NCBI GenBank assembly: GCA_965217605.1
Contig: CBDCJB010000014.1
Location: 12,407 to 76,406, forward strand
DNA: 64,000 nt
Source of the DNA: Gammaproteobacteria bacterium
Lineage (GTDB): Bacteria; Pseudomonadota; Gammaproteobacteria; Ga0077536
Direction: 5' to 3'
Below are positions 1 through 34,833 of this stretch, one piece after another. A model generated the notes under the pieces. That model was given only the letters and a program-made list of their open reading frames with translations, made no database searches and was not told where the DNA came from. Made by a program: the position numbers and the translations under genes. Position 1 is the stretch's first letter. Each line of letters starts with the position of its first letter.

Positions 1-2
1 CT

Positions 3-107
3 CAGCACAACGCCAACCCTATACCTTTCGCCTGGACCGCAACCGCCGACTCAATCTTGAAAAAACTCGCCCGACTTTCGAAACTTCTTTGCGGGACAGC
101 ACACTAG
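3..107 (+). mobile_element. 3' end of an IS630-family transposase/IS (partial, runs off window start)
   Basis: Frame 3 reads QHNANPIPFAWTATADSILKKLARLSKLLCGTAH*, matching my recollection of IS630 transposase C-termini (HN..P.PF.WT.TAD.IL). It ends in CACTAG, consistent with IS630 TA/CTAG target junctions. Not in the ORF track. Confidence 0.6.
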
Positions 108-139
108 ATTACGTCTGCAATGCTCTCGATAGCGGTCAT
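104..139 (+). repeat. Composite intergenic repeat, copy A0 (right half only)
   Basis: ctagattacgtctgcaatgctctcgatagcggtcat is near-identical to 903-938 of copy A1. The left half is replaced by the IS630 end. Confidence 0.8.
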
Positions 140-217
140 AAACGTCGCCACACTCTCAGGTTGAGCGTCGGTGTAGTGAAGGTTGAGTTCCCGTTCGTTG
201 AGAACCCTGCGGAACTA

Positions 218-406
218 ATGACAGATGTGATATCGGCGAACACAAGAGCCCCAAAATTAGTCGTGTCCGAATTGATGAAGTTCAGCAAGGCGGCATCGTT
301 AAAGGTAGTGACATCACCCGGAAGGGAAATAGAGTGGCCGACGATTATTGATACAATCCTCGCCGCGTGGAAGGCTAAGTTATGGGCTGTCTATGGAGGA
401 TTTTAA
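218..406 (+). CDS. Hypothetical protein
   Basis: ORF directly upstream of the ABM gene. The track start (TTG 89) lies in the IS630 end/repeat, so ATG 218 is preferred. No family motif. Confidence 0.25.
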   Translation: MTDVISANTRAPKLVVSELMKFSKAASLKVVTSPGREIEWPTIIDTILAAWKAKLWAVYGGF

Positions 407-409
407 GCT

Positions 410-739
410 ATGCGCACGGTCGTTTTCCGAACATATCTAGTACAGGAAAATGTCGAGAAGTATTATTCGACGACAAAGAGATTGCAGGAAATTGCTGTTT
501 CTGTACCAGGGTTCATCGCCTTTAAGAACTTTGTCGCTCCTGATGGCGAGGAAATCACCATCGTCGAGTTCGAATCGGAGGAAGCTTTGAAGGCTTGGCG
601 CGATAACGCCGAGCACTTGGCCGCGAGGAAAATAAGCGATCGATTTTTTACGGACTACCGAATCACGACCTTTGGAGAACCGCTACGCGACTACGGGGTT
701 AAGAACGACGAACGCTTCGGAGAAGTAATACCGCGGTAG
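410..739 (+). CDS. Antibiotic biosynthesis monooxygenase (ABM) family protein
   Basis: 109 aa; PGFI..F....DGE.ITIVEFESEEAL.AWR.N.EH..A pattern; GGAGG RBS upstream. Confidence 0.8.
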   Translation: MRTVVFRTYLVQENVEKYYSTTKRLQEIAVSVPGFIAFKNFVAPDGEEITIVEFESEEALKAWRDNAEHLAARKISDRFFTDYRITTFGEPLRDYGVKNDERFGEVIPR

Positions 740-851
740 TGAAAGTTTAAGGTAAATATCCTGTGCCTGCTCAAAACTCAATAAGCGAGGGAGACGTGAG
801 AGTTAAGTATAAAGCGGAGTATGAGGGTCAGGTCCTGCCTTTAGCCACGAT

Positions 852-996
852 GACGGCTATATTGGGTCGTTAGCCGCCTCCTCGCGTCAGCGCAGCACTG
901 TTCTAGATTACGTCGGCAATGCTCTCGTAAGCGGTCGTCGAGGGCGGTTCAGTCGAGCGAGTATGACGAGCAGCGGCTCGCGGCAAGGGCGGACAT
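852..996 (+). repeat. Composite intergenic repeat, copy A1
   Basis: gacggctatattgggtcgttagccgcc...gcagcactgttctagattacgtcggcaatgctctcgtaagcggtcgtcga...cggctcgcggcaagggcggacat; aligns by eye with the other copies. Confidence 0.85.
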
Positions 997-1004
997 GGTG
1001 CGCC

Positions 1005-1032: not shown

Positions 1033-1057
1033 TCGTTACCAGTAACGTCCTATTCGT

Positions 1058-4105: not shown

Positions 4106-4192
4106 GAGTGCTGTGGGTCGGTAGCCGCCCTATCGCGGCAGTGCAACACGGCTCAGAATGGCGTCTGTAATCCCCTTGGAAGCGGTCGTCCG
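4106..4192 (+). repeat. Composite intergenic repeat, copy A2
   Basis: gggtcggtagccgccctatcgcggcagtgcaacac...gcgtctgtaatccccttggaagcggtcgtc. Confidence 0.8.
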
Positions 4193-4200
4193 TTTGGTTT

Positions 4201-4342
4201 AAATGCTGTTCCGACGATGAGCGGTGGCCGCTGTTGAGCGCTGCTTATCCCAAGCGTTATATGCTTAAAAGAAACCGAGAACGAAGCAATTGACATTACC
4301 CGACGATATAGACGACGAAAAGCTGGCTGAGATTGCGCTCGC
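4201..4342 (+). repeat. 142-bp direct repeat of 16132-16273 (leader plus truncated 5' end of the DUF6429-like gene)
   Basis: Manual alignment shows 3 mismatches in 142 bp. The copy breaks off after codons LTLPDDIDDEKLAEIALA. Confidence 0.9.
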
Positions 4343-4429
4343 GGTTAACCGCGCGGGGTTCTGATTTGCTACGCTTACAGAACTGCCCTCGGGTTAGCAT
4401 CCAATAAAACGATGTCGGGAGATCGGACC

Positions 4430-6295
4430 ATGAGAAATCTGCACCTGTTACCGCTGTTTGGAATCCTCTTCGCGTCGCTCGCCACGTACGCTGATCCCAG
4501 AGCCGAAGAGTCGAAAGGACTGGACGGTGCCGCGCTGTACGCCGAACACTGTATCGAATGCCACGGGCGCGCCACAATTTCCCCATCGTTGCCCGCAATG
4601 TCGAACATGACCGCCGAGGAAATTCACAAGGAACTGTGGTTCGGCGTCATGGCGCAGTTCGTCAATGGCTTGGACGACGCGAAGCGATGGACCATAGCCA
4701 AGTGGATCGCGGAGCACAAACCCGAAAAGGGCACACGCGGTCCCGGCGTGGCCATGTGCAAAGACAAGACGCCGCTGGTACCCGATGCGGCGCATGACTG
4801 GCCTGGACTGTCGAACGACAACCGGTACAACCGGCATGTGACCAATGCGCAGTTCACCGCTGCGGGGTTAGCGAACCTCAAGGTCAAGTGGGCCGTGGCC
4901 TTCCCGCAGGTCCACGCGTTCAAGGGTGGCGGGCACCCGGTCGCCGTCGTGGGCGACCGCATCTTCGTGGGGAATCTCAATCAATGGGTCTATTCGCTCG
5001 ATGCGGACACCGGCTGTGCCCACTGGGCATTTCGCGCGGAATGGCGGATCCGATCGAACGTCGCGGTGTCCGACGGTATCGCCGTGTTCGGCGATACGGC
5101 GGCCAACGTCTACGCCGTAGATGCGGAAACGGGCCAATTGCTGTGGCGTGACCGGGCCGATTGGACGCCGACCTCACGCATTACGGGCAATGTGACGACA
5201 CATAACGGTATGGTTTACGTGCCCGTGTCCTCCTTCCAAGAAGTGCTCAATATTGGCAAGAATAAGGAATACCCGTGCTGTACGTTTCGCGGCAGCATCG
5301 TTGCCTATGACCTGCGTACCGGCGAGCGCAAGTGGAAGTCCTATACCATCGACAAGGAGTTCGGGTATCTGGGCACGACGAAAGCCGGCACGAACCGTTA
5401 TGGTCCCTCGGGGGTCGTGGTGTTCTCGGCGGTCACGGTCGACGACAAGCGCGGCCTGCTCTACGTACCAACCGGTAACCAGATGACCGAGCCGGTCGTG
5501 CCCGAATCCGACTCCGTGATCGCGTTCGACATGAAAACGGGCGCCAAGCGCTGGGTGACTTCACTGGCGCCTGAGCAAATGGGCGGTGAGGACGTCTACC
5601 ATCTAGGCTGCGAAAAGTGGGTCGATCCCGAACAGAAAACCTGTTCACCGGTCAACCCGGAAGGACACGGTGACCGGGATATCGTGTCGCCCGCGGTCCT
5701 GGTGGAACGCTCGGACGGCAAGGAGATCATCGTGACCGGATCCAAGGACGGCATGCTTTACGGCCTGGATCCGGATGACAACGGCAAAGTCCTGTGGCAG
5801 ATCCGCGTCGGTAAAGGCGGAGAGCTCGGCGGCATCCAATGGGGATTCTCGAGCGACGGCAAAAACGCCTATGTACCCGTCATCGATATGGATTTGGACT
5901 GGAAGGCGAACGGATCCTTCACGGCGGTCGATCTGCTGACCGGTAAATCCGTATGGCGTATACAGGATATGAAGCCTGATTGTGAAGGTAAGACGACAGC
6001 GTCGTGCAGCAATGCGTTCAGCTTGCCCAGTACCGTGGCGGGCGGGCTCGTTTTCACCGGGACCGGTGACGGCGTGCTGCGCGCTTACGATACCGCGACC
6101 GGCAAGCCGGTGTGGACGTTCGATACGGTGCGCGAATATGAAACGGTGAACGGTCGCAAAGGCTTCGGTGGCGGGCTCGGCTCGTTCGGAGGGCCGGTCA
6201 TCGTGAAAAACCGGTTATACGTTTCATCCGGCATGGATCAGTTCAATATCGGGCTGCCCGGCAACGTAGTGATCGCGTTCGAGATCCCCGAATAA
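4430..6295 (+). CDS. Quinohemoprotein (cytochrome c + PQQ beta-propeller) dehydrogenase, polyvinyl-alcohol dehydrogenase-like
   Basis: Signal peptide, CIECH heme-c motif, repeated Trp-docking motifs (vyavDa.TG..lW), CCTFRGS motif typical of the PVA-DH family. Confidence 0.8.
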   Translation: MRNLHLLPLFGILFASLATYADPRAEESKGLDGAALYAEHCIECHGRATISPSLPAMSNMTAEEIHKELWFGVMAQFVNGLDDAKRWTIAKWIAEHKPEKGTRGPGVAMCKDKTPLVPDAAHDWPGLSNDNRYNRHVTNAQFTAAGLANLKVKWAVAFPQVHAFKGGGHPVAVVGDRIFVGNLNQWVYSLDADTGCAHWAFRAEWRIRSNVAVSDGIAVFGDTAANVYAVDAETGQLLWRDRADWTPTSRITGNVTTHNGMVYVPVSSFQEVLNIGKNKEYPCCTFRGSIVAYDLRTGERKWKSYTIDKEFGYLGTTKAGTNRYGPSGVVVFSAVTVDDKRGLLYVPTGNQMTEPVVPESDSVIAFDMKTGAKRWVTSLAPEQMGGEDVYHLGCEKWVDPEQKTCSPVNPEGHGDRDIVSPAVLVERSDGKEIIVTGSKDGMLYGLDPDDNGKVLWQIRVGKGGELGGIQWGFSSDGKNAYVPVIDMDLDWKANGSFTAVDLLTGKSVWRIQDMKPDCEGKTTASCSNAFSLPSTVAGGLVFTGTGDGVLRAYDTATGKPVWTFDTVREYETVNGRKGFGGGLGSFGGPVIVKNRLYVSSGMDQFNIGLPGNVVIAFEIPE

Positions 6296-6345
6296 GGGTA
6301 CCGTGACGGCGATTAGATCGGAGGACGTCATACAAAGCAGGACAC

Positions 6346-6475
6346 ACTAGCTATATAGGGTCATCAACGGCCTCATCGCGGCAGTGCAGTACTGATTTAG
6401 ATTACATCCGCAATACTTTCAGAAGGTCGTCCAACAGCGTTCAGTCGAGTGTTAACCGAGCACTTCGGCTTCAGA
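6346..6475 (+). repeat. Composite intergenic repeat, copy A3 (continues at 6639-6648 and 9833-9840 after insertions)
   Basis: actagctatatagggtcatcaacggcctcatcgcggcagtgcagtactgatttagattacatccgcaat...cacttcggcttc. Removing MITE 2 and the IS3 restores ggccaaaagcggacgtc. Confidence 0.8.
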
Positions 6476-6638
6476 CCGAGGCTGTGTGAAAACTATTTGC
6501 GGATTTGAAAAGTGGGAAGGCCATGATCCTATGTGATCGATTTCGGCAGCTTGATCCCTAAAACATCTGAATAGAGCAACACAAGTGGGGAAAATTTTCA
6601 TCGCATGACGCTTTTTCGGAGTTTTCACACAGCCTCGG
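6476..6638. mobile_element. MITE 2 (163 bp, IS1182-like ends)
   Basis: Perfect 19-bp terminal inverted repeats ccgaggctgtgtgaaaact (6476-6494) / agttttcacacagcctcgg (6620-6638). Confidence 0.75.
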
Positions 6639-7025
6639 CCAAAAGCGGTGGAGTTGACCCGCTTTCGTGGATACCTGACCCTTTTAGAAGGAGGATGCCA
6701 CGATGCCCAAAACACGAACTGCCTATCCACCGGCCTTCCGGCAACCGATGATCGAACGGGTACGGGCGGGCCGCAGCCCGGAAGACCTGGCACGCGAGTT
6801 TGAGCCGACCGCACAGACCGTACGCAACTGGGTCGCGCAGGCCGACCGTGATGAAGGTCGCCGCAACGACGGTCTGACCACTGCCGAACGCGAAGAACTG
6901 CGGCGTCTGCGTCGGGAGAATCGGCGGCTACGTGAGGAACGGGAGATCCTTTCAAAAGGGAATTATAACTATCTCTTGACTTTTCTGCTTGAATCCACTA
7001 TCCTTACAGTTAGTTAAGGAGATCG

Positions 7026-11302: not shown

Positions 11303-11450
11303 GACTAGCTATATGGGGTCGGTAGCGGCCTGATCGCGGCAGTCCAGTACTGTTCCAAATTACGTCTGCAATACACCTCGTAAGCGGTCAATCGGCTTGC
11401 TTAGCAATCATCGCTGGGGCTGACTTCGACTCTCGGCCATGAGCGGACCT
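11303..11450 (+). repeat. Composite intergenic repeat, copy A4 (full three-unit form)
   Basis: gactagctatatggggtcggtagcggcc / acgtctgcaatacacctcgtaagcggtc / gacttcgactctcggccatgagcggacc. Confidence 0.85.
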
Positions 11451-11526
11451 CGAAGCCAGGTTGAGAAGCGATAAGCCACCAACTGCTACACTTCTATTGA
11501 GGCCGGACAATAAAAAGGGGCTCGAT

Positions 11527-14145
11527 ATGACGTTCGATGAGGTACTTGCCCAGACGCTCACACTTCTCGAACAGGAAGGCCGCGTATCCTACAGCGCGCT
11601 TAAACGGCGCTTCGATTTGGATGACGAGTACGTCAAAGACCTCAAGGAAGAAATCATCGATGCGAAACAGGTGGCGGTCGATGAAGATGGCAAAATTCTG
11701 GTCTGGTCTGCAGTAGACACCGCCGCACGCCTACGAGAATCTCTCGGATCTCAATCTCCCATCAGCTACACACCATCGCATCTCGCTGAGCGCATCGTCG
11801 CTGAGCAAGCAGCCATGGAAGCAAGGGGTGCCGTCGAGGGTGAGCGTAAGACCATCACGGCATTGTTCGCCGATCTGAAAGGTTCGACAGCGCTCATTGA
11901 TGGACTTGATCCGGAAGAAGCCCGCGACATCATCGACCCGGCATTGCAGATCATGATGGATGCGGTACACCGCTACGAGGGATATGTCGCGCAAGCTCTC
12001 GGGGATGGGATCTTCGCTTTATTTGGCGCTCCTATTGCGCACGAAGATCATCCGCAACGAGCATTGCATGCGGCCTTGCAATTACAAGACGAGATGCGCG
12101 GTTATAGTGACAAATTACGAAGGCGTGATGGTCCACCGTTGCAGGTTCGCGTCGGTATCAATACCGGCGAAGTTGTGGTGCGTTCGATTCGCAAAGATGA
12201 CCTGCATACCGACTACGTGCCCGTCGGACGTTCGACCAACATTGCCGCCCGCATGGAGCAGTTAGCCACGCCTGGCTCGACTTTGGTCACTGAGCACACG
12301 CACAAACTCACGGACGGTTACTTCGATTTCAAGGCGCTGGGGCAAACGCAGGTCAAAGGTGTGGACGCGGCCCTCAATATCTATGAACTCGCCGGTGCAG
12401 GACCGTTACGGACTAAACTCGAAGTTTCGGCCCGTCGCGGTCTGTCCCAGTTTGTCGGGCGCGAACGTGAGAGCGAGCAACTCCAACAAGCCTTAGCGCA
12501 GACCCGAGCCGGCCACGGTCGAATTGTCGGCGTGATGGGCGAGCCCGGGTTGGGTAAATCACGGCTGTTCCACGAGTTCAAATTGACTTTACCCATTGAT
12601 TGTTTGGTCTTGGAGACCTTCGCGGTCTCACACGGTAAATCTTCTCCCTACCTGCCGGTCATCGACCTGCTCAAGAGTTACTTTGACATTGCGGTCGAAG
12701 ACGACAATCAGAGGCGGCACGAAAAAATCTCGACTAAGCTCCTGGCCCTCGAGCGTAGCCTCGAAGACACCCTGCCCTATCTCTTCGCGCTGATGGGTAT
12801 CGATGATCCCGCATCCTCTTTGCAACAAATGGACCCACAGGTCCGTCGGCAACGGACTTTTAGCGCACTGAATAAACTGTTTCTGCGGGAGAGCTCGAAG
12901 CAACCCTTAATCGTAATCTTTGAAGACCTGCATTGGATCGACAACGAGACCCAGGGCGTTCTCGATGCACTCAGTGAAGCCGAAGCGAATGCTTCCATTC
13001 TGTTGCTCGTAAATTATCGGCCGGAATACAGCGATAACTGGGGTCAGAAGGCGCATTACTCACAAGTGCATCTCACCGCATTGGCGAGCGAGGAGGCGGC
13101 GGAGCTCCTGACGTTTCTGCTCGGTGACGACGCGAGCCTCACCGCATTGAAGCAGGTGATTCTGCAGAGGGCAGAAGGTACGCCGTTTTTCATGGAGGAA
13201 GTCGTCCGGACGCTGGTCGAGGAAGACGTACTGCTTGGCGAGCACGGGAACTACCGGCTAGAGAAAGCCCCGAGCGAGCTGCATATCTCGCCGACCGTAC
13301 AGGGCGTGCTGGCGGCCCGCATCGACCGGCTGCAGCCTGGGGAAAAAGCGTTATTACAACGGCTCTCGGTTATCGGCCGTGAGTTCCCGTTGGGACTGGC
13401 ACGCAAAGTCGCAACGGAATCCGATGACGAGTTTCACCACTTGCTGTCGTCACTGCAAGCCAAAGAATTTCTCTATGAACAAACGGCGTTGCCCGACGCC
13501 GAGTACATCTTCAAACACGCGCTGACTCAGGAAGTCGCCTATGGTACGGTGCTCCGGGAGCAGCGCAAGACGATGCACGAACGGGCCGCGAACGCGATCG
13601 AGGCGCTCTACAGTGCCAAACTCGAAGACCATTACAGTGAATTAGCGCATCACTACACTCGGGGTGGTAACGTCGAGAAAGCGCTCGAGTACCTCCACCT
13701 CGCCGGGCAGCAGGCAGTGGAACGGTCGGCTAACGAAGAAGCCATTGCGTACCTGCGACAGGGCTTGACGCTGCTCGAGGATTTAGACGACGCAACCGAA
13801 CGAGTGCAGCAGGAACTCAAGCTCCAGATGGCATTGGGCGCGCCACTGATGGCCACCAAAGGATGGGCAGCGCCGGAACTCGGTCAGGCCTACAACCGCG
13901 CTTACGAGCTGTGCATGCAACTGGGGGAGACCCCGGAGCTTTTCGAAGTGATCGCGGGTTTGTTCGTTTATCACGTCGGCTCACCGTCGCCGTTGGGGAC
14001 GGCCCGCGACCTGGCCGAGCAGGCGGACGTACCCACCCTCTTTCTGATCGCCAACGGAGCAATGGCGAATGTCCTGTTTGTATGCCGTCAGCGCCTATGG
14101 GACAGATATAGCGCTGGTTTAAGGGAGAGTTTTTGTTCATCCTAA
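11527..14145 (+). pseudogene. Class III adenylate/guanylate cyclase + AAA ATPase + TPR protein, truncated at ~14078 by an IS
   Basis: ITALFADLKGST and GDGIFALFGAP cyclase motifs; Walker A GEPGLGKS; Walker B IFEDLHW. The last ~21 codons derive from the IS end. Confidence 0.85.
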
Positions 14146-15390
14146 CCTGAGGAGTTGAGATGAAACAGAGACCGACAGGACGAACGTCGTCGTCAGAAAA
14201 AATCATTCGTGACATCAAGCGCAACACGCGCAAGCAAACCAGTGCGGAGGAGAACATACGCATCGTACTGGACGGCGTGCGTGGCGAAGCCAGCATTGCG
14301 GAGCTGTGCCGACGAGAAGGTATTGCTCAAAGCCTAACTTACAAAGGGTCCAAGGACTTCATGGAAGCCGGCAAGCAGCGCCTGGCCGGGGACATTGTTC
14401 GCCAGGCCAACACCAGTGACGTCACGGCGCTTCGGCGTGACGCCCGAGATCTCAAGGACGTGGTCGCCGAGCAAACGCTGGAACTGCGGCTGCTCAAAAA
14501 AAACAGGCTCGGGGATGGGGACGACCTGCAATGAGGTATTCAGCCGCCGAGAAGCTTGAGATCATTCGGTTGGTGGAGCGATCGCACCTGCCGGCCAAGC
14601 AAACCCTGGCTATGTTGGGCGTTCCACGCACCACCTTCTAGCGTTGGTACGCACACTATCGTCATGACGGAGAAGTGGCGCTGCAGGACCAGGCGCCCCT
14701 GCCGGGGCGGGTGTGGAACCGGATCCCCGATACCGTGCGAGACCGCCTGATCACGTTGGCGCTGAACAGGCCGGAACTGAGTCCGCGCGAGTTGGCGGTT
14801 ACCTTCACCGATACCGAGGGCTATTTTGTCTCGGAAAGCTCGGTTTACCGGCTTCTCAAAGCCCACGCTCTGATCACCCGTGCGGCCTTCATCGTCATGA
14901 AGGCCGCCAGCGAGTTCACAGACAAGACCACGGCCATCAATCAGCAGTGGCAGACGGATTTTACCGACCTGAAGATCATGGGCTGGGGCTGGATGGTTCT
15001 AGCCACGATACGGGATGACTTTTCACGCTATGTCGTGGCCTGGGAGCTGTGTACGACCATGACCAGCCGGGATGTGGCCGAGACCCTGGAACTGGCCTTG
15101 CAGGCCTCGGGTTGCGACCAGGCCGACGTCGTGCAAAAGCCGAGATTACTCTCCGACAATGGCTCAAGTTACCTCTCGAGCGACCTTGCTGATTGGCTCA
15201 GCGACAATGGGATGAGCCACGTTCGCGGTGCACCGTACCATCCGCACACACAAGGCAAGATCGAACGCTGGCACCAGACGCTGAAGAACCGGATACTACT
15301 GGAGAATGACTTCTTGCCCGGCGATCTGAAACAGCACCCCGTTTCCGTGGACGGTATCGAGCGGTTCGTCGATCACTACAATCATCGCCA
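14079..15390 (+). mobile_element. Second IS3-family element, degenerate (orfA 14160-14534; orfB from 14531 with in-frame TAG at 14639)
   Basis: Left end tgtatgccgtcagcgcctatggga; orfA IRIVL.G.RGE.SIAELCRREG; orfB WQTDFT...DDFSRY...SDNGS...GKIERWH. Confidence 0.8.
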
Positions 15391-16080
15391 TCTTCGCGTC
15401 GGCCTGCGTCTTGAAACTGTGGCGGTCGATGAGTTCGCATTCGAGCGTCGCGAAGAAGCTCTCGGCCATCGCGTTATCGTAGCAATCGCCGACCGATCCC
15501 ATCGACGGTTGTACACCCATTAACCGGCAGCGCTTGCCGAAGGCGACGAAGTGTACTGGCAGCCCTGGTCACTGTGATGGATCACATTCTTCGGTCGACG
15601 CTGCCATAGCGCCATGTTGAGCGCCTCGAGCACGAGCTCAGTGCGCAGATGCGTCGCCATCGACCCGCCTACGACGCGCCGACTGAATGCATCGACGACA
15701 ACCGCCAGATACACGAACCCCGCCCACGTCGGCACGTCGGTCACGTCAGCAACCCACAGTGCGTCCGGCCGCGAAGCCACGAAGTGACGCTCGACCAGAT
15801 CCGGCGCCGGGCGGGCATCGTGATCGCGGCGTGTCGTGCGCGTCCTTGTGCGTCGACTCACCCCGGCCAAACCCCATTCACGCAGCAGCTTGGCGACGCG
15901 CTTGCGACCCACGTGCGTCCCCTCACGAGAAAGGATCAAACGAAAGACTATCGCGAAACGTCGTTTGCACTATCAACGACACGCTGCGTAACATGAAAAT
16001 GATGAGACCGTCGTTGCGGCGACCTTCATCACGGTCGGCCTGCGCGACCCCGTTGCGTACGGTCTGTGCGGTCGGCTCAA
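15337..16080 (-). mobile_element. Fragmented third copy of the 1249-bp IS3 element
   Basis: Blocks identical to the copy at 35362-36610 (IR piece at ~15337, orfB piece ~15385-15925, orfA piece ~16005-16080), interleaved with other sequence. Confidence 0.75.
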
Positions 16081-16220
16081 AATACGCCCTTAGCAAGACC
16101 AAACATCTGTCCCATTTGTTTGAAGACGGACAAATGCTGTTCCGACGACGAGCGGTGGCCGCTGTTGAGCGCTGCTTATCCCAAGCGTTATATGCGTAAA
16201 AGAAACCGAGAACCAAGCAA

Positions 16221-16475: not shown

Positions 16476-16657
16476 AATAATGGCGGCACATAGGTAGCCA
16501 CTCAACTGGGACCTTTAGCTGCACCCTTCCTTTTCTGCTGCTCCGGTATAAGTTTGGCGTGAGTTAATCTGTCGTCGATGACTGCTGTGTGGTTTGGCCC
16601 TAGTTTTTCGGACTACCTAATTCGGCACGATAATGTGCTGAGGCTATTAGGAGAAGC

Positions 16658-17591: not shown

Positions 17592-17861
17592 TCAATTTCT
17601 CCAAATCAGTGATTGGAGAAACATTTTGATCTCCGAGCGCTCCTTGAGGGTGTCGACTACGCTATCGGCTTCACATTGCAGCCAGATTCAGTTCCATTTC
17701 GTCTCTGACCAGCCACAAACGGACGGTCGCGCTTCTACAAAGGCTTTGTATTCGCTTGGCTCTTACGGAAACGAGAATTGATGTTGTAAGGGCGCCCCAC
17801 GCACTGGCCCTGGCATAAGCGATATCCTTGACCCGTTGTTTTAACGATGGGGGATGAAGAG

Positions 17862-18236: not shown

Positions 18237-18310
18237 CGGCAGACACCACATACGCAGAGCGCGAGGTGTGCCGGCGGCTAGAATGGCTAACAGCGATGAC
18301 TGCTCAGTCC

Positions 18311-18381
18311 GACGTCCGCCTTTGATCTCGGAAGTCCAGGCGCAGCATACCGACGTCTGCAATCAGGGCCACATTAGACAT
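18311..18381. repeat. Cluster of repeat-family units
   Basis: gacgtccgcctttgatctcggaagtcc and gacgtctgcaatcagggccacattagacat share the GTCYGC arm of the repeat units. Confidence 0.5.
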
Positions 18382-18779
18382 GCCTCGTTCGTCAGGATAG
18401 GTCGGAACTCAAAAGCCGATCCGCAAGAAGAAGTCCAAATTTCTACAAATCAGGCAAACGGCATCGTCTCCGCGAACGGGAGGCACGACATACCACGCTT
18501 TCGTTCCCGTTGGCTGTCTCCAGAGACTAGCCCTCTATTCAACTGGGCGAAATAAAGTTGTACTAACTCAATTCATGTGCTGATACCAACCGTCCTTACT
18601 TCGCTTTCTCTGCTTCCCTAAAATACTCGACGATATCCGGAGAAAGATTCTCACTACCCCTCTGCCTTGCATGTTCCTCCATCTTAGCGTGTACGGCGGA
18701 AGTGACCGGATCACGACGGTCAGTCAGGCTCGAGAATCGAACCTGACGGCGTTTGTGGCGCGCGTGTTCCGCAGGCCAC

Positions 18780-19772
18780 CTATTGAAAAGCCGGATAGAC
18801 GTCTTTGACGAAGCGCCTGAGCTGTTGCGTCTGATCCCGGGCGGTGAATCGGAGGGTGATGATGTCGGCGCCGGCCTCGACGTGAGCGCGAATCGCCTCG
18901 ATACATTGCTCCGGGCTGCCCATCGCCACCCACACTTCGAGTTGTTCGCGCGTGAAATCCGTCGTGTAGTACGCGTCGAGATATTCCTTGGATTCGCGCA
19001 AAGCCGTGTCGCGATCCTCATTTACGTGGCAGTTGTAGTACAGGCAGCGCGGCATGTCACTGACGTCCCGCCCGATCTGCGCGGCCTGCCGCTCGATGCG
19101 CTGCCACGCGAGTCGAAACTGCTGCGGCGTGACCAGGGTCGTCTGCCAACCGTCCGCCACCTCCGCTACCCGGCGCGCAATGCGGTCGAGCAGCTTATCC
19201 TTGACGCCGAAGATCTCGGGGTTGTTCGCGATCCAGATTGGGCAGGGGTTCTGCACGGGTTTGGGCTCGATGGTCAGATTCTCGAACTGGTAGTAGCGGC
19301 CCTCGTGAGAAACCGCGTCTCCGGTCCACAGCTTGCGCGCAATCTCGATGCCTTCTTCCATGCGGATTGCCCGTTCCGACAGATTCATGTTCATCGCTGC
19401 CCATTCGATTTCCGACTCGCCGGAGACCTGCCCGCGCGCGCCCTGGCATGCAACCATGATGGAGCGGCCGCCGCAGACGACGTCAAAACTCGCCCATTGA
19501 TACGCGAGCAATACCGGATGACGCAGTGGAAAGCTGGCAAAGCACGCGGGTCCGAGCTTGACGCGCTCGGTCAGCGCGGCGACTGCCGACAATACGGTGA
19601 CCGCCTCGAGCCGGGGCTTGGCCGCGAGGCTGTCGCCGACCCAGATCGAATCGAAGGCGCCGGACTGCTCGGCCTCCACGCTCAAAGCCAGGATCTCTTT
19701 CACCGACGTGCTGCCGAGAACCACGCCGCGGTTCGACAGGGTCAGTCCGAAACTCACTTTGGTTTCAGCCAT
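18780..19772 (-). CDS. LLM-class (luciferase-like) flavin/F420-dependent oxidoreductase
   Basis: FDSIWVGD, LSAVAALTERVKLG, P.WIA, ADGW motifs. Confidence 0.9.
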   Translation of the reverse strand: MAETKVSFGLTLSNRGVVLGSTSVKEILALSVEAEQSGAFDSIWVGDSLAAKPRLEAVTVLSAVAALTERVKLGPACFASFPLRHPVLLAYQWASFDVVCGGRSIMVACQGARGQVSGESEIEWAAMNMNLSERAIRMEEGIEIARKLWTGDAVSHEGRYYQFENLTIEPKPVQNPCPIWIANNPEIFGVKDKLLDRIARRVAEVADGWQTTLVTPQQFRLAWQRIERQAAQIGRDVSDMPRCLYYNCHVNEDRDTALRESKEYLDAYYTTDFTREQLEVWVAMGSPEQCIEAIRAHVEAGADIITLRFTARDQTQQLRRFVKDVYPAFQ

Positions 19773-19924
19773 TGTCTTCCTCTTGATCGTTGGCCCGGCG
19801 ACTGTGACGCATCATGCGCAAACGGCAAGATACCATTGTCGAGCGTATTTCGGGGTGAACTTCAGGCCTCCGAACGGCTGAACGGTCCATGCATTCAAGC
19901 CGGCAGAAGCACGAACGGGCGGGA

Positions 19925-21323: not shown

Positions 21324-21464
21324 TATATATGAGTCGTGAGCCGTCTGATCGCGGAAGGGTAGCACTGTTCCGAATTACGTCCGGAATACCGCTCGAAAGC
21401 GGTCCTCGTTCGCCTTCAATGTCGGTGCGGAAGCCTGACTTCGACTTTCAGCCAATCGCAAACA
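21324..21464 (+). repeat. Composite intergenic repeat, copy A5
   Basis: tatatgagtcgtgagccgtctgatcgcgg...agcactgttccgaattacgtccggaataccgctcgaaagcggtc...tgacttcgactttcagccaa. Confidence 0.8.
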
Positions 21465-21479: not shown

Positions 21480-21851
21480 TCAACTCTTGTCCGCATTGCG
21501 AACGTTGTACATAAAATAAAGGCTGACCAGCGTCGCGGCCACAAGGACAAACGCCGTACCCTCTATATAACCTGGGACGTTATTAAAGATCCAAACTTCG
21601 TCAAAAATCGTCTTCTCGCGCGCTTGGATCACGAACCAGCTGTCCACATATCCGACTGTTACCGACACAAAAATTGCGGCAAGGACCCCGTATAGGGTCG
21701 AAATCGTCAAACATTGAAATCGCGATAAGGATTTGCCCAGGAAATATGCGACTGTTAGATACCCGAACGTCACAGAAACCCACATGCCCGCGTAGGTAGC
21801 AGTTACCTCGCCAATATTCGTCAACGCAGCAATAGTGTCAGCTTCGGTCAT
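21480..21851 (-). CDS. Small multi-TM membrane protein (paralog of 17862-18236)
   Basis: See paralog; bracketed by repeats A5 and A6. Confidence 0.7.
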   Translation of the reverse strand: MTEADTIAALTNIGEVTATYAGMWVSVTFGYLTVAYFLGKSLSRFQCLTISTLYGVLAAIFVSVTVGYVDSWFVIQAREKTIFDEVWIFNNVPGYIEGTAFVLVAATLVSLYFMYNVRNADKS

Positions 21852-21902: not shown

Positions 21903-22040
21903 CTGCTATTGGGTCGTCGGCCGCCATATTGCGGCGCAGTACAGCTGAAGGTTACGTCTGCAATCCACACAAAACCATTCACTCGGCTTGCGTAACAATC
22001 ATCGCCGGGGGTGACTTCGACTCACGGCCAGAAGCTGACG
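21903..22040 (+). repeat. Composite intergenic repeat, copy A6
   Basis: ctattgggtcgtcggccgccatattgcggcgcagtac...ttacgtctgcaat...tcggcttgcgtaacaatcatcgccgggggtgacttcgactcacggccagaagctgac; the linker matches A4. Confidence 0.85.
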
Positions 22041-23614: not shown

Positions 23615-23812
23615 GCCACGCCCAATCACCGAAGACACGGCCCAGGTACGCTTTGCTCGGTGGGCGCGTAAAGCGCGACACGACGGGGAGCCATCATTTT
23701 GGAACGAATTGCAGGTCGTTATGAACCTTCCGTTGGAATACGTTCCAACACCTCGCCAATTATCGTGTCGGTTGAAGCGCCCTCGACCTAGCCGCCACGT
23801 GGTTTTCCGTCC

Positions 23813-25090
23813 TTAGAAGAACACAAAGGATCGGACAACAACGTTTTTGCGGCAGGGCGCGTCGTTGGGCGCGGTCGGGTCGACGCAGGCCGTGTGGAAG
23901 GACCAGCGCGAGACGGAGCCGTCGGTGACAGAGTCGTAGCACTTGAGCATCGAGACCTCGGTGGGCTTTTGCTGGGGAAGCCAGTACCACTCGTGGTCGG
24001 GCCTGTAGGTGAAGCGCGTAGTCTCGCCAACGCGATCGTCGTAGACGCGATAGCTGGTGATGTAGGGCTGGTCGGCGAACGAGGGCCAGGCGCAGAGCAC
24101 GAAGGGGTTCTGACGCACGGTTTCCATCGGCTTGGCAAGATTGATCGACATGAACCGCCGCGACATCTTCGCGTCGGCCTGCGCTTCCGTATAGTGCTGC
24201 TCGCGCCCGAAGTTCCGCAGGTTTCTCGTAAGGAGCTCGCGGCAGCGGACACGGCCGCTGTTGTCGTTCAGGTCGTTGTGCACGATGTTGGCGTAGTAAT
24301 TGTTCACGCCCGGAATCTTGTTGTCCTGGTCCTCCGTGCGGTCGCCCGCATAGTCCTTGTCAAACACGTCATGGTTGTACACGAGCGCATCCGTCGCGCC
24401 CGGGAAGCATTCCAAGAGGAGCTCTTCCATCTCGGGGTAGAACACGCGCTCCACCTCGGCAGCGTCGTAGAAGTTCTCGCACTTGGACTCGCAGTGCGCC
24501 AACGAGACGCCGAGCTTGTCCATGCACTCGGGGCTATAGGGCGAGAGGCCCGGGTAGTACTCCTCGATTCGTCGCGCGTCGCGCATCACCTGCGGGAAAT
24601 AGAGGCGTCGCTGCTCGATGTCCTTGTCTTCCTTACGCAATGCGTTGGCCTCGGCCTCGTGCGCGTGGTCACGCCAGAATGCGTTGGACGTGACGATGGT
24701 GTAGGACGGCCGCTCGTGGATGGTATAGCGAAGCGGAACCGCCAGACCGCCGTCAGGGGCTTCGATGGCGCTCGCCCGAATATGTTCCAGGCACTCCGAG
24801 TAGGTCCGAAACCCGGTACCCCACTTGGTCTCGATGGGGCCGGGGGGAGCATTGTCGAGCATGTCGATGATTGCCTGCCCCTCCCCCTCGGCAATCTGGC
24901 GAAGCGCCGCCTCTGTCGCCGCAGCAGTTCCCGCATCGCCATCCTGATCGAACGACATGTAGGACAAGCCTCCGTTCGCAGCGATGGGCGGTGGCTGCCC
25001 TTCCGTGAGTTCGAGGGGAGGCACATACACCGATGAAACTGTCTCCGTATCCGCCGGGACGTGGTTCGTAGTGTCTTTGAGCTGGTCCAT
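23813..25090 (-). CDS. CmcJ/NvfI-like (2-oxoglutarate/Fe(II)-type) oxidoreductase with N-terminal extension
   Basis: HND, INLAKP..TV.QNP..LC, W..LPQQ.P.EV.MLKCYDS, HTA..DP..P....R...VR motifs in the C-terminal half. Confidence 0.7.
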   Translation of the reverse strand: MDQLKDTTNHVPADTETVSSVYVPPLELTEGQPPPIAANGGLSYMSFDQDGDAGTAAATEAALRQIAEGEGQAIIDMLDNAPPGPIETKWGTGFRTYSECLEHIRASAIEAPDGGLAVPLRYTIHERPSYTIVTSNAFWRDHAHEAEANALRKEDKDIEQRRLYFPQVMRDARRIEEYYPGLSPYSPECMDKLGVSLAHCESKCENFYDAAEVERVFYPEMEELLLECFPGATDALVYNHDVFDKDYAGDRTEDQDNKIPGVNNYYANIVHNDLNDNSGRVRCRELLTRNLRNFGREQHYTEAQADAKMSRRFMSINLAKPMETVRQNPFVLCAWPSFADQPYITSYRVYDDRVGETTRFTYRPDHEWYWLPQQKPTEVSMLKCYDSVTDGSVSRWSFHTACVDPTAPNDAPCRKNVVVRSFVFF

Positions 25091-25191
25091 TACATGCCCT
25101 CGATTAGAGAGACCCCATCTTGGCACACGAGACTTTTACTTCCCAGGGATGCTTACGGCGTATTCGGGCTTAGTAAAATACTCGCGATGCG

Positions 25192-25330
25192 CACTTCAGG
25201 TCGTGAGCCGCCATATCGCGGCGGCGCGGCACTGCAAGAGGTTGCGTCTGGAGTTCCCTCGAAAGCGGTCATCTAGTTGCTTTAATGATCGCATCGAGGA
25301 AGCACTTCGGCTTACCGCCGGAAGCGGACG
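25192..25330 (+). repeat. Composite intergenic repeat, copy A7
   Basis: ggtcgtgagccgccatatcgcggcggcgcggcactg...gcgtctggagttccctcgaaagcggtcat...cacttcggcttaccgccggaagcggacg. Confidence 0.85.
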
Positions 25331-29016: not shown

Positions 29017-29108
29017 CGCAACGTCGCGGTTTCCCACTTCGAGGCACGGCCTTACAGGCGCTGTAGTGCTTGCGCGGATCTAGAGATACACATCGGAAGG
29101 AGAGTGAT

Positions 29109-29882
29109 ATGGATCTTGGTTTAAAAGACCGCGTAGCGGTCATTACTGGAGCGAGCTACGGGCTGGGCGAGGCCATGGCCCAGCGCTTAGTCAACGAGGG
29201 AGCACGCGTCGTTATCTGTGCGCGCGGCGAGGAGAAACTAAACCGTACTGCACAAGCCCTGGGTCCCAACGCGTATGCGATCCAGGCTGATGTGAGCAAG
29301 GCTGCAGACATCACACAACTTTTCGATCACACCGTGAAGGAGTTCGGCAAACTTGACATCCTGGTCAACAATGCCGGCTGGTATCACCTGAGCCAAGGAC
29401 TGGGTCTATCCGACGAGGAGTGGCAGGACAATCTTGATATCAACCTGTTCAGCGTGATTCGCTGTTCACGGCTTGCCGTTCCCCTGATGCAGAAACAGAA
29501 ATGGGGCCGGATTGTCAACATTTCTTCGATCTTCGGCAAACAGCCTAACGCGGGCTTGATCGACTACAACACCACCAAAGCAGCCGTTATCTCTCTCACC
29601 AAAACCCTGGCCGACGAGTTGGCCAAGGAAAACATACTGGTCAACGCGGTGTGTCCAGGACCAACGCGTACGCCATTGTGGGATGGTCTGGCAAAGACGT
29701 TTAATCCTGACGATCCGGACGGCATGATCAATGACTTTGCCGCCGCGAATATTCCGCTAGGTCGGTTTGGCCGCCCTGAGGAGATTGCCGACCTGGTTGC
29801 GTTTCTGGCCTCAGAACGGGCCAGCTTTATCACTGGTGCTGCTTATGACATCGACGGTGGGATGGTGAAGAATATGGGGTAG
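29109..29882 (+). CDS. Short-chain dehydrogenase/reductase
   Basis: TGASYGLG, NNAG, YNTTK motifs. Confidence 0.95.
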   Translation: MDLGLKDRVAVITGASYGLGEAMAQRLVNEGARVVICARGEEKLNRTAQALGPNAYAIQADVSKAADITQLFDHTVKEFGKLDILVNNAGWYHLSQGLGLSDEEWQDNLDINLFSVIRCSRLAVPLMQKQKWGRIVNISSIFGKQPNAGLIDYNTTKAAVISLTKTLADELAKENILVNAVCPGPTRTPLWDGLAKTFNPDDPDGMINDFAAANIPLGRFGRPEEIADLVAFLASERASFITGAAYDIDGGMVKNMG

Positions 29883-30144
29883 GAGAGGTGATCTCTGTGA
29901 GCCGGGCGCCGGCCATCGTTACCCCAGCATTACAGTAGAGCCGACGGCTAACAGCAACGTGCTCGCGAGCGGTGCCGCGTCCTCGTCGAGATGGAACATG
30001 CGAGGGTGTTCGTCTGACGGCTTTGTTGCGGGTAGGGCATTCCCTGGTGTCGGAAAGAAGCGCCGCACCATAGGTTAGACGGAGGATATCCTTACGCTCC
30101 GTTGCTCGAACAAGCCACGCCCAGAAAATCACTAAAAGGAAACC

Positions 30145-31859: not shown

Positions 31860-32089
31860 GCATTCCTGGAGAGATTACTCCCCAGTCCTCGAAAGCGTTA
31901 ACGTTACCGAGCCGTAACTCAATCGTGTCGTTGAGGGCGGTTTCGCAGGCCCGCTACCAACCATTCGACGCTTAGAAAGTCGCGTGTTTAGCCATCGAGC
32001 AATCTCTGTCGATGGCGAGGAACGTTCTGGTAGCGGGCTTTAATTCAATTTATGGTGACAACACCCACCATAATTTCTGAGCAGGATGT

Positions 32090-33784
32090 ATGACCATGAA
32101 CCAGAGCCCCTACCCCCAGTTGAACGAGCGCGCCCAGGGTTGGTTAAAACATCTGTGGCGTAAAGCGACGACACCGGATGATTGGTCGATGAACGGCGAG
32201 CCCCATCCGTGGTGGGATCGCTATTCGACGCCGCCAATGGCCGCGTTTCCGCGCTTCGATCTGGCCGATTCGAGTTATGCGATGGCGGCGATGGCGGACA
32301 AGACGCCCGCTTGGCGCGAAGTGTATACACGCATTCTGGACGAGCTGGTAGAGCGTCACACGACCTTTTGGGCCTTTGTCGATTGGCTGACCCAAATCGG
32401 GCCGGACCCCGATCGCAAGGACTATCCGGAAATCTGGTACGAGTCGCTGATCCCGCAGCATTTGCGCGGTGAATACGACGTGCCGGGCTGGACGGCGAAC
32501 GGTATCGAACCCTGGGGACTACAACCCGATCCAATCGCAGCCGAAGGTGCCCTATTCATCAAGGGCTGGTTCAACCTGGTGATGGGCTTGTATCAATATG
32601 TATCCGGCGATACCAAATGGCATCGACCGTTTGAACTGACGGGCTACGAGGGTAAGAAATTCGAATGGACGCAGCCGCACGTGGCGGAAACCTTAGCGGA
32701 GCTATGCGCGAAACATCCCGAAGGGCTGCATTGCGAAAACACCAAGATCTGGCCGGCATGCATGAGCTCTGCCGGTCTGGGCCTGCAACTCTCGGATACG
32801 CTGACAAGCGCAAGCAATCACTGGGTCTACCACGAGTGGGTAGATTACGCGCAGAAAAACTACATGCATCGCAAGAAAAATGGTGAGCTCGATTGGCTGG
32901 CGATGTATTACGATCCGCTGATCGACTATCAGCACCGCGCAGGCGACGTCGGATTCGCGGGCCTCATGACCACCTGGTATATGTTGCCGCAAAAACAGGA
33001 ACTGGCCACGCGCCTGTATGAACTGGGCGCCGCCGAATTCTCGTGGAACAATCCGCGCGTCGCTGTGCCCGAGGTCATGGATCCGCGCCTGTGGATCCTG
33101 GGTTACTGTCTGGCAACCGAACTCGGGGACGACCTGACCGCCGCGCGCCTGCGGGATGCCTTTCACCAGGCCGCCGAGCCGCGGCATTTCGGCGATGACG
33201 ACGATGAATTCGGTTTTTTCTTCGGATTTGGCGAGGATTGGCCCAGAGGACAACTCAGCGCACTGTTAATGATGACCGAGGTCGGCGGCGTCGGTGCCTG
33301 GCAAGATATTTACAATAGCCCCAACCTCGCCAAATACGGCGAACCGACCGTTGAAGGCGTGGATTTTCCGGCGCTGGGCATTGCGCAGTCTTGGAACGAC
33401 CTGCAACACGGCATGTTGCAGGTATCGACCTACGCGGCCTCGTCGTCACGCCGCGGTGAGGCAACAATGTATCGGGTCACTCAACTACCCGATCCGGAAA
33501 CGGTATTCGTTCGATGTGACGGCAACGAGTTTACGCAGTGGCGCAAGCTCGATGAATCCAGCATCGAGATCACGACGAACGTCGACGACCATTCGTTTCA
33601 GATTTACACCGGCTACCACGCGGCAACGGATGCGCACGACGACTCGGCCGCCGTAACGCGACGGGCACGTGCCGATCACCCGGTGAATGCGCGGGCATTC
33701 GGCGCTGTGCGCACGCAGAGCATCAGTTCGGCGGTGTTGAATGTCGGCGCCGGGCCTGTTGGCTGCCCCTGCTGCCCGGGGTAA
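32090..33784 (+). CDS. Linalool dehydratase/isomerase (LinD)-like protein
   Basis: CENTKIWPAC has the same C-E-x7-C spacing as the LinD catalytic cysteine pair (recalled); aromatic-rich helical-barrel-like body; C-terminal GCPCCPG. Confidence 0.55.
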   Translation: MTMNQSPYPQLNERAQGWLKHLWRKATTPDDWSMNGEPHPWWDRYSTPPMAAFPRFDLADSSYAMAAMADKTPAWREVYTRILDELVERHTTFWAFVDWLTQIGPDPDRKDYPEIWYESLIPQHLRGEYDVPGWTANGIEPWGLQPDPIAAEGALFIKGWFNLVMGLYQYVSGDTKWHRPFELTGYEGKKFEWTQPHVAETLAELCAKHPEGLHCENTKIWPACMSSAGLGLQLSDTLTSASNHWVYHEWVDYAQKNYMHRKKNGELDWLAMYYDPLIDYQHRAGDVGFAGLMTTWYMLPQKQELATRLYELGAAEFSWNNPRVAVPEVMDPRLWILGYCLATELGDDLTAARLRDAFHQAAEPRHFGDDDDEFGFFFGFGEDWPRGQLSALLMMTEVGGVGAWQDIYNSPNLAKYGEPTVEGVDFPALGIAQSWNDLQHGMLQVSTYAASSSRRGEATMYRVTQLPDPETVFVRCDGNEFTQWRKLDESSIEITTNVDDHSFQIYTGYHAATDAHDDSAAVTRRARADHPVNARAFGAVRTQSISSAVLNVGAGPVGCPCCPG

Positions 33785-33804
33785 GGCATACAAGTTCTGA
33801 CAGC

Positions 33805-33943
33805 TGTCCGCTTCGGCTCGTGCGCTGCCGAATTTCGCCATTGCAACACTGCTAAGGGTTAGGTCTGCAAAACGCGCGTAAACGGTCGTCGAGTTGCTTT
33901 AAGCGCTGTGCGGGAGTCTGACTTCGGCTTGCGGCCAGATGCT
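33805..33943 (+). repeat. Composite intergenic repeat, copy A8
   Basis: gtccgcttcggctcg...gcaacactg...ttaggtctgcaaaacgcgcgtaaacggtcgtcga...tgacttcggcttgcggccagatgct. Confidence 0.75.
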
Positions 33944-33951
33944 TAGGGGAA

Positions 33952-34575
33952 TTAAAGGATCTGAGGAACAAATCTGTCCCGACGACTTCGCTGGGACCAG
34001 GAGAGCACTACTCCGAGCCCTCCAGCGAGAAGTGGAAATGGCGCTGGGATGGGGACTGTCACAACACCAACAGTCAGGATGTCCCCTCCATCGCTAAACT
34101 CGCCTAAATCTAATATGAAACCGCCATCGCCCTGAATTACTCCACGCAGCCAGCCGTAAATCAAAGGGTCAATAGACAAGCCGGATACCTTGACGTAGAA
34201 AATGTCGCCCGGCGTCATTTGGACGTTGCCACCGGAAAAGGGGAAATACGAGCCCGGGTTTATGATTGTCTCACCAAATATGGCTTGATCTACTGTGGAA
34301 TTTGCGTGCAAAGCAAAGAGATTAATGAAAGTGTTGTTGTTTACGAGAAATGAGGCCGCAACTCCCTCAATAGGTTCAAACGCGACGCCCAGGACTGTGC
34401 TTAATTGGATGGGTGTCAGGTAGAAATCCGTCCAGTAATGGCAATCCGTTAAGAATTCGCAGGCGATGGCGAAATGGGTCAGATCGTTCGCGTTACGAGG
34501 TATATATATCGTCGACGAGGCCGGCCGCCATGCCGACACCGCGAGCAAACACACTAATAAGGTCAGACGCCTCAT
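33952..34575 (-). CDS. Secreted protein with PEP-CTERM/VPLPA-CTERM-type tail
   Basis: Signal peptide; VPIPAPFPLLAGGLGVVLSWSQRSRR. Confidence 0.7.
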   Translation of the reverse strand: MRRLTLLVCLLAVSAWRPASSTIYIPRNANDLTHFAIACEFLTDCHYWTDFYLTPIQLSTVLGVAFEPIEGVAASFLVNNNTFINLFALHANSTVDQAIFGETIINPGSYFPFSGGNVQMTPGDIFYVKVSGLSIDPLIYGWLRGVIQGDGGFILDLGEFSDGGDILTVGVVTVPIPAPFPLLAGGLGVVLSWSQRSRRDRFVPQIL

Positions 34576-34749
34576 TTCCCGTCCTCCCGCGCCACTCTCA
34601 CGTCGGTTCCACAGGGCCGCTTCGATAATACCGTTTCAATAGCTGCGATTACTAGAGATTCTAGGCAGTGTAAATGTAACGAATCGTGCCAACCAGTCTG
34701 AGCGCGCATGAGAAACATTCGGCGTTAACCCGAATTTTTCAGACCTCAA

Positions 34750-34833
34750 ATGTCCGCAAAGGGTTGAGCCGCCTGATCTCGGCAGCGCAGCACTGTTATA
34801 AGTTACGTCTGCGATCCTCTCGTAAGTAGCCAT
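34750..34833 (+). repeat. Composite intergenic repeat, copy A9
   Basis: atgtccgcaaagggttgagccgcctgatctcggcagcgcagcactgttataagttacgtctgcgatcctctcgtaag. Confidence 0.8.

Follow-up and report, generated by a model that had tools for sequence, protein, structure and literature searches.

What divides the genes in the first 35 kb of this stretch of DNA into separate groups, and do the dividing sequences take part in moving them? The window (the whole stretch analysed, 64,000 nucleotides, C14:12407-76406 of a 4.84-Mb, 19-contig gammaproteobacterial assembly, here G000) contains a family of repeats that all face the same way. A sequence-only reading had proposed that they are the recombination sites of a gene-capture system distinct from integrons. 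The repeat is best explained as a double-stranded-DNA junction element, about 135 bp long, that sits, in large variable arrays, between gene modules open to exchange. The evidence comes from the layout of the arrays, the pattern of conservation within the repeat and modules shared with a sister genome (G002).

Copies in the window were located by repeat search, aligned with MAFFT and searched for again with an nhmmer profile built from the copies. The first repeat search gave an eight-member family of 77 nucleotides and overlapping families, every member on the + strand; the alignment lengthens the unit to about 135-140 bp. The window holds nine full copies of about 135 bp (nhmmer E 1e-19 to 1e-31) and one copy split by insertion sequence (IS) elements of the IS630 family, all on the + strand, which bears out the earlier count of about 10 composite copies lying in one direction between open reading frames (ORFs). 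Every copy is intergenic, whatever the direction of the adjoining ORFs. The copies and remnants are as follows.

96..139, + strand, 3' portion of the split repeat, interrupted at CTAG, where two IS630 elements lie in tandem; the corresponding 5' half is outside the window, on its upstream side (C14:10136-10183).
852..996, + strand, full copy (profile match 859-987, E 8e-31).
4106..4238, + strand, copy with a degenerate 3' arm, delimited by alignment (profile match 4111-4228).
6346..6484, + strand, copy whose 3' arm has been displaced by nested insertions of a miniature inverted-repeat transposable element (MITE), IS1595 and IS3 (profile match 6354-6481); an arm remnant lies near 6639-6660.
11303..11450, + strand, full copy (profile match 11312-11446), 13 bp upstream of an 894-aa cyclase/AAA_16 gene.
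17701..17724, + strand, what remains of a repeat's 3' arm (CCACAAACGGAC), bordering module D on the left.
18311..18375, + strand, the 5' part of a repeat in degraded form (GTCCGCCTT...GACGTCTGCAAT), bordering module D on the right.
21324..21464, + strand, full copy (profile match 21328-21459).
21903..22040, + strand, full copy (profile match 21908-22037), which together with 21324-21464 encloses one 123-aa gene.
25192..25330, + strand, full copy (profile match 25194-25327).
33805..33945, + strand, full copy (profile match 33809-33942).
34750..34890, + strand, final copy of the array with a degenerate 3' part (profile match 34755-34842), followed by an IS3 element.

The profile gave no match at E<1 across 35-64 kb, so the metabolic block at 38-64 kb is free of copies, as first described. 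Further copies lie upstream of the window at C14:3391, 7502 and 8387, and the array thus comprises 13 co-oriented copies in 44 kb. Elsewhere in G000 the profile search finds one extra copy at the edge of contig C11 and only a handful of small clusters; the median spacing of copies in this genome is 2.6 kb. The seven single or degenerate units listed in the earlier description fared less well, as none is significant by the hidden Markov model profile. Two of them, at 17701 and 18311, are true remnants on comparison with G002; those at 16578, 22613, 29942 and 31871 are unsupported. The unit at 2263 has a 5'-arm-like sequence, GTCTGCAAAGGGTCG, fused to the end of a MITE.

The same repeat forms larger arrays in a related genome. 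The scan of relatives used a sequence-only covariance model of the repeat and covered 40 relatives; the repeat family is confined to two other genomes of the same genus and has no match in 22 further genera of the same taxonomic family. About 185,000 species genomes were covered by a pattern scan, which recovered those two assemblies (labelled uncultured Gammaproteobacteria/Pseudomonadota) and two short contigs. The latter, JAPUGV010000125.1 and JAPUIP010000493.1 (loci L065 and L079; 3.9 and 5.7 kb), carry full-length repeats (98-99 bits) and are binned as Chloroflexota and Candidatus Poribacteria. They are probably mis-binned pieces of this gammaproteobacterial genus, and their origin in sponge-associated bins hints at a sponge-associated habitat. 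The repeat was also found on three metagenome contigs and on no viral contig. The near-complete sister genome G002 holds at least 83 copies in five fetched arrays, each of them 100% co-oriented, at a median spacing of 2.4 kb (range 0.12-21.7 kb).

C2:612983-749004 (136 kb), 39 copies, all on the + strand.
C2:1620415-1641076, 9 copies, + strand.
C2:2569387-2588140, 8 copies, - strand.
C3:354898-379300, 11 copies, - strand.
C3:887210-930753, 16 copies, - strand.

In G000 and G002 together, 96/96 array copies are co-oriented within their own array. The orientation of the arrays switches at least six times along one contig; replication direction therefore does not account for the co-orientation. 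The proposed check of strand bias and confinement to arrays accordingly gave strict co-orientation and restriction to variable gene arrays, not a random scatter through the core genome. These data bear directly on the main rival of a junction between modules, namely that the repeat is a selfish, non-autonomous element resembling MITEs or repetitive extragenic palindromic (REP) sequences. Such an element would insert at a short palindromic target (GTCCGCTT abutting AAGCGGAC, or similar) and pile up in gene-poor, recently acquired DNA, and the modules would move by other means. The intergenic position of the copies is what it predicts. A symmetric target, however, cannot set orientation, and the uniform direction within arrays would not follow from it. 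Taken with the anatomy of the repeat and its relation to IS elements, described below, we regard the selfish element as unlikely.

The consensus, drawn from 73-126 copies, has the ends GTCCGCTTnGGGTCG...CGGCCAnnAGCGGAC and falls into two parts. The 5' part, about 95 bp (GGGTCGTCAGCnGCCTnATCGCGGCAGTGCAGCACTGCT..AGATTACGTCTGCAATnCnCTCGTAAGCGGTCGTC), is well conserved, with the blocks GGGTCG, AGCnGCC, TCGCGGCAGTGCAGCAC, TTACGTCTGCAAT and CTCGnAAGCGGTC; a near-perfect palindrome, GCAGTGC-A-GCACTGC, is among the conserved blocks. A variable 3' part of about 40 bp follows, and then the 3' arm, GGCTnnCGGCCA. The terminal arms are imperfectly inverted (5' GAYGWCCGCTT-n-GGGTCGTC; 3' CTCGGCCA-nnn-GCGGAC). 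Directly outside the 5' end is GAtGtCCGCTTt, moderately conserved; directly outside the 3' end is the inverse of this outer box (aGAGCGGaC), weakly conserved. A central inverted pair of the same box consists of ACGTCTGCAAT, 8 bp and AAGCGGTCGT. The GAYGWCCGCTT-type box therefore recurs at the 5' end, in the centre (as the inverted pair) and at the 3' end. The GTCYGC...GCGGWC motif pointed out in the sequence-only reading is thus a real recurring box; its statistics are modest. GGGTCGnnAGC pairs with GCTnnCGGCC in 88-91% of cells, without covariation, so terminal inverted repeats are present. Imperfect arms of this kind are a feature of MITEs. The selfish element is also favoured by the sequences just outside the repeat, which are inverted halves of a palindrome and travel with the modules rather than with the repeat cores. 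The flanks are inverted (GTCCGC...GCGGAC) and not direct, and no target-site duplication was found, which speaks against insertion of a selfish element.

Mean pairwise identity in the 5' part is 70-75% within G000 and within G002, 72-78% between genomes and 80% for the five copies of the third genome, G001; the 3' part is 44-58% identical. The blocks are conserved at 80-99%. To judge from these identities, the divergence fits independent copies under constraint, and misfits a recent selfish burst or frequent homologous exchange between copies. The blocks show conservation resembling that left by purifying selection, with no sign of homogenisation of the copies in the alignment. For the selfish element, a family that is 70-75% identical with conserved blocks is not the young, star-like burst expected.

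No signal of an encoded product was detected. No reading frame stays open across the copies, and a protein-coding remnant (for example, a gene end duplicated by tandem integration of islands) was rejected, as there is no common open frame and CTAG is a stop in the best frame. Rfam, a check suggested in the sequence-only reading, gave zero matches at gathering score, and RNAalifold on 126 copies found no consensus structure. In 80% of cells the arm and hairpin pairings that had been proposed are preserved, yet covariation is no better than in shuffles; the fold energy equals that of shuffled sequence (mean z about 0 on either strand, 83 copies). Since all of these tests are negative, a structured RNA or single-stranded DNA element was rejected. 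A tRNA-derived att site was rejected as well: the window has zero tRNA genes, and no resemblance between the repeat and the tRNA-proximal sequences of the G002 arrays was seen by eye. A protein could bind the repeat for other purposes, as an operator, silencer or insulator for acquired genes that has no role in recombination. The block-wise conservation that includes the palindrome, the lack of an RNA or hairpin signal and the invariably intergenic position would all suit a regulatory or architectural element of this type. Its orientation, however, is fixed to the array and not to the neighbouring genes, and a scan of the copies for promoters or terminators found no such signal. It would also leave unexplained why the ends of modules coincide with the arms, and we consider it improbable.

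The DNA between the repeats is shared between species. DNA flanking the array in G000, like core DNA, is 72-74% identical to that of G002; the flanks are not syntenic. Identities of 88-98% are reached by at least six inter-repeat modules, which lie in different arrays and among different neighbours in the two genomes.

Module A, C14:8511-10183, G002 C2:1627117-1628786, 95.6% identical.
Module B, window 4363-6338 (+), a pyrroloquinoline quinone (PQQ)/cytochrome c dehydrogenase, G002 C2:682945-684920, 92% identical; there too it lies between two repeats, with different neighbours.
Module C, window 23679-25279 (+), a CmcJ/NvfI-family oxidoreductase on the - strand, G002 C2:734544-736145, 93% identical.
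Module D, window 17712-18322 (+), the gene of a 129-aa membrane protein, G002 C2:1112911-1113522, 88% identical; in G002 it fills the gap between two repeats exactly.
Shared module, window 18729-19781, G002 C3:165773-166825, 93% identical.
Shared module, window 29060-29885, two places in G002, 94% identical.
Shared module, C17:30880-31541, G002 C2:669533-670194, 98% identical.

Modules with identities this far above the approximately 73% of core genes, set among different neighbours, must therefore move, and the claim that the repeats delimit mobile gene modules is upheld. The orientation relative to the repeats is unchanged in modules A-D, which were aligned in the fetched arrays. The cargo consists mostly of accessory redox and catabolic enzymes, TPR and cyclase-STAND proteins and hypothetical proteins; no recombinase was found among it. 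Two small paralogous genes in the window, 17847-18236 (129 aa) and 21480-21851 (123 aa), are 50% identical and have no family match; each forms a single-gene module between repeats or repeat remnants.

The module boundaries cluster on the repeat, chiefly on its arms. For modules A and D, the shared tract opens at CGGCCAnnAnCGGAC, within the 3' arm of the repeat upstream, and closes at GTCCGCTnn, which is the 5' outer box of the repeat downstream; the repeat cores that flank them are not orthologous between the genomes. Four fully resolved module ends fall in the terminal arms, and the shared tract of module C stops at the 5' outer box of the next repeat. Within a genome, one pair breaks just inside the 5' arm, two break between TTAC and GTCTGCAAT in the left arm of the central site, and a third breaks near model position 76, just past that left arm. 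The idea of breakpoints at one fixed position in the repeat is not supported. Several are exactly in the arms; they occur also in the centre or, for one module, some distance outside.

This scatter is also accommodated by an explanation in which the repeat has no enzyme of its own and is passive, portable homology, that is, short homologous stretches that allow RecA-type swapping or addition of modules after DNA uptake. Breakpoints spread over the most conserved stretches (arms, centre and position ~76) rather than one nucleotide are what it predicts, it needs no linked recombinase, and module boundaries outside the repeats, as in module B, pose no difficulty. The repeats, however, would be a very poor substrate, being 70-75% identical over ~95 bp and ~50% elsewhere, with identical runs mostly <20 bp. 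Frequent exchange should homogenise the copies within a genome, which is not seen, and the block conservation is left unexplained. Passive homology as the whole account is accordingly quite unlikely in our view.

Whether the arrays are integrons could be decided with an internal control. G002 has two true intI genes, C2:996723-997664 and C3:1527239-1528180 (462 and 461 bits). The first adjoins a textbook array of at least 11 attC sites (CCTAAC...GTTAGGY, ~122 bp; locus L108:8200-18600) spaced 0.4-2.7 kb apart. None of the repeats studied here lies within 20 kb of either intI gene. Atypical attC sites, in an array of the CALIN type (clusters of attC sites lacking integron-integrases), would be co-oriented between gene modules, the length of the repeat is within the attC range, and classical integrons exist in the genus. 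The consensus nonetheless has no RYYYAAC/GTTRRRY boxes. Folded as single-stranded DNA, six genuine G002 attC sites gave z-scores of -6.0 to -11.8 versus +1.05 to -2.84 for individual repeats. The modules exceed integron cassettes in length about 4-fold and carry genes in either direction. The statement that the repeats are not attC sites thus holds on boxes and hairpin folding alike, and an attC/CALIN origin is effectively refuted, with next to no probability left to it. By motifs, folding controls and lack of IntI linkage, the repeat arrays are not integrons; the genus has classical integron cassettes and, separately, repeat arrays. Outside the window G000, which has no integron integrase, has five classical attC-like sites (RCCTAAC...GTTAGGY, 94-111 bp) at C2:22479, C2:23070, C3:314752, C10:4067 and C10:7169, none near the array; by sequence they look like small CALIN-type clusters.

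The repeats are a target of three unrelated IS families. IS630 is found at the central CTAG of the repeat in four separate copies. A 1.7-kb IS1182-type element, encoding a 478-aa DDE transposase, is invariably inserted in one direction into GGGTC of the 5' arm and makes a 5-bp duplication, and a MITE of ~165 bp with IS1182-type ends lies at this same point of the 5' arm in at least 11 copies and also at the mirror-image point of the 3' arm. A group II intron at the 5' end of the repeat had been considered and was rejected, the 478-aa ORF being this transposase. IS91-family elements in G002 carry an upstream tyrosine recombinase (SAM_4 + Phage_integrase) and a Y2 transposase; six of six copies are co-oriented with the arrays and follow a CAAG-like tetranucleotide of the 3' arm (CGGCCAAG-like), once in tandem.

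IS630, window 1-103 and upstream C14:10215-12513, two tandem elements, 99.7% identical; IS630 also at C17:317 kb and C1:155.9 kb.
IS1182-type, G002 loci L023:10617-12303, L025:1508-3194, L030:7336-9021 and L029:16206-17898.
IS91-family, G002 loci L024:2823-5409, L025, L026:5105-7613 and 15520-19523, and L023:4782-7285.

The insertions are ordinary transpositions into a frequent, neutral target, and they account for how rich in IS elements the arrays appear. A selfish element gains from these data in that the repeat is a hot spot for other IS elements and in that a shorter element with the same arms precedes the IS91-like copies. It loses in that neither a master element nor a cognate transposase was found, nor any example of an empty site. 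Arm motifs outside the repeats, which could represent empty sites, are not commoner than chance; one apparent empty site was rejected because it is an IS1182 junction. Two sets of duplicated sequence in the window also accompany IS elements. A 142-bp sequence at 4201-4342, directly after one repeat copy, has a 98% identical twin at 16132-16273, 12 kb off beside IS debris, and the long near-identical segments 15369-16081 and 35491-36460 are part of IS3-type elements at both places.

Candidates for an enzyme acting on the repeat were sought around the arrays and in the three genomes. Tyrosine recombinases are common near the G002 arrays and form three groups (IS91-like carriers, heads with a P4-type integrase and AlpA, and fragments). 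The IS91-like elements with their upstream tyrosine recombinase were rejected as the array enzyme, as they are absent from G000 and no significant similarity links their ends to the repeat. The P4-type integrase and AlpA heads by tRNA genes were rejected: among the arrays, at least 5 in number, only 2 have such a head, in one case frameshifted, and the G000 homologues lie away from repeats. The suggested co-occurrence with a recombinase of the 'PWNKG' type was not borne out: the fragment in the window is a single truncated copy without a homologue in G000 or in the fetched sister-genome loci, and it too was rejected. XerCD/dif was rejected because the repeat has no dif-like site; the host dif is at C1:576719 (AGTTCGCATAA-TGGTTA-TTATGTTAAAT). 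A protein of ~207 aa recurs upstream of three G002 arrays (C2:~606.0-606.7 kb, L023:4087-4638 and L039:5457-6077). It weakly matches a GIY-YIG nuclease (22.3 bits), and repeated modules in its N-terminal part resemble helix-turn-helix motifs; after its gene comes a cyclase/STAND gene with a relative at window 11461-14145. As the array enzyme it was rejected because it is absent from G000.

We tentatively favour, at a little short of an even chance, the reading that the repeat is a genus-specific junction site with several subsites, at which modules are exchanged by an enzyme acting in trans; none was found in our searches. The boxes would be putative binding sites for this protein, most likely a recombinase or a transposase-like enzyme, and DNA would be broken and rejoined at the arms or at the central site. 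Circular or incoming DNA with one site would integrate beside a resident site. This would automatically give co-oriented repeats, and modules could be deleted or replaced. The likeness between repeats may additionally aid homologous exchange. Co-orientation is what circles with one site would produce beside a resident site, and block conservation without homogenisation points to a site recognised by a protein; a junction for a trans-acting enzyme is therefore favoured. Several results weigh against it. The breakpoints define no single crossover nucleotide, and those of module B fall 30-125 bp beyond the repeats. Conservation of the 3' outer box reaches only about 40%, and the box motif alone is barely enriched in the window (14 matches versus 7.1 expected). 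No recombinase is consistently adjacent to the array ends. G000 has no IS91-type recombinase, and its best match to IntI (TIGR02249) scores 84 bits versus a cut-off of 265. Serine recombinases are absent from two of the three genomes, G000 included, and the smallest sister genome has only XerC/XerD. The repeat has no arm comparable to those of dif, especially TTATGTTAAAT.

A broader proposal is that the genus has a gene-cassette system beside classical integrons, with multi-subsite junctions of ~135 bp at which an unlinked trans-acting enzyme inserts, deletes or swaps metabolic modules of 1-5 genes. It would thereby build chromosomal arrays, as long as 136 kb, with modules that pass from one species to another. 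We consider this possible but doubtful. No description of such arrays was found in the literature. Of the gene-capture claim made in the sequence-only reading, the integron-like architecture and the distinction from attC sites remain; a linked recombinase and a fixed crossover do not, no folding or covariation signal was seen, and a dedicated system is something we infer from the arrays.

As a means of storing and shuffling gene cassettes in bacterial chromosomes, only integrons are, to our knowledge, well understood. This genus has classical integrons and, separately, much larger arrays organised around a different repeat, for which every defining integron test is negative. Multi-gene metabolic modules of these arrays have clearly passed between species whose DNA is only ~73% identical. 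Should a dedicated enzyme act on the repeats, they would represent a second, independent solution to modular gene capture, able to carry operon-sized cargo, with new recombination sites and enzymes to study. If they are selfish or passive, they would still mark and help to explain the flexible genome of an uncultured marine lineage, maybe sponge-associated. In either case, the repeats are a striking common target for transposition by three unrelated IS families.

No defining feature that was tested, whether of integrons, Xer modules, REP elements or structured RNAs, is present in the repeat arrays, and the comparison with known systems is thus one of partial likenesses. MITEs, REP sequences, bacterial interspersed mosaic elements (BIME) and enterobacterial repetitive intergenic consensus (ERIC) sequences are likewise short, non-coding, intergenic, lineage-specific repeats with terminal inverted arms and are IS targets. 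Unlike them, the repeat is clustered in strictly co-oriented arrays, has no target duplication or stable palindrome, and its copies are highly diverged yet keep conserved blocks. REP/BIME are stable palindromes of 20-40 bp found genome-wide, whereas the repeat is ~135 bp long, has no fold signal and occurs in few arrays. The res-type sites (Tn3/gamma-delta res, Tn4430 IRS, cer/psi) are about 115-280 bp, directional, and composed of several recombinase-binding boxes with accessory sequence, a design that the repeat may share. They are active only between co-oriented partners. They occur once per element beside the recombinase gene, whereas there are about 100 copies per genome here and no cognate gene was found. 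The pdif (XerC/XerD) modules of Acinetobacter plasmids are bounded by short, inverted sequences resembling recombination sites and are moved without a linked recombinase, and each module here also ends in inverted half-sites (GCGGAC...GTCCGC). The repeat differs in having no dif-like 11-6-11 XerC/XerD site, in the ~110-bp conserved, directional core between every two modules and in its chromosomal arrays of up to 136 kb. Compared with sedentary chromosomal integrons and CALINs, the arrays are without attC boxes, hairpin, IntI link or a single crossover point; their modules hold 1-5 genes in either orientation, at a median spacing of ~2.5 kb versus ~0.6 kb in the integron of the genus itself. 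They share with them long arrays of co-oriented repeats (~60-140 bp) between unrelated, promoter-less-looking cargo, the horizontal exchange of that cargo, the presence of several arrays per genome, some without an integrase nearby, and repeats that are IS hot spots. With its co-oriented sites, mobile modules between them and several arrays per genome, the architecture can fairly be called cassette-array-like.

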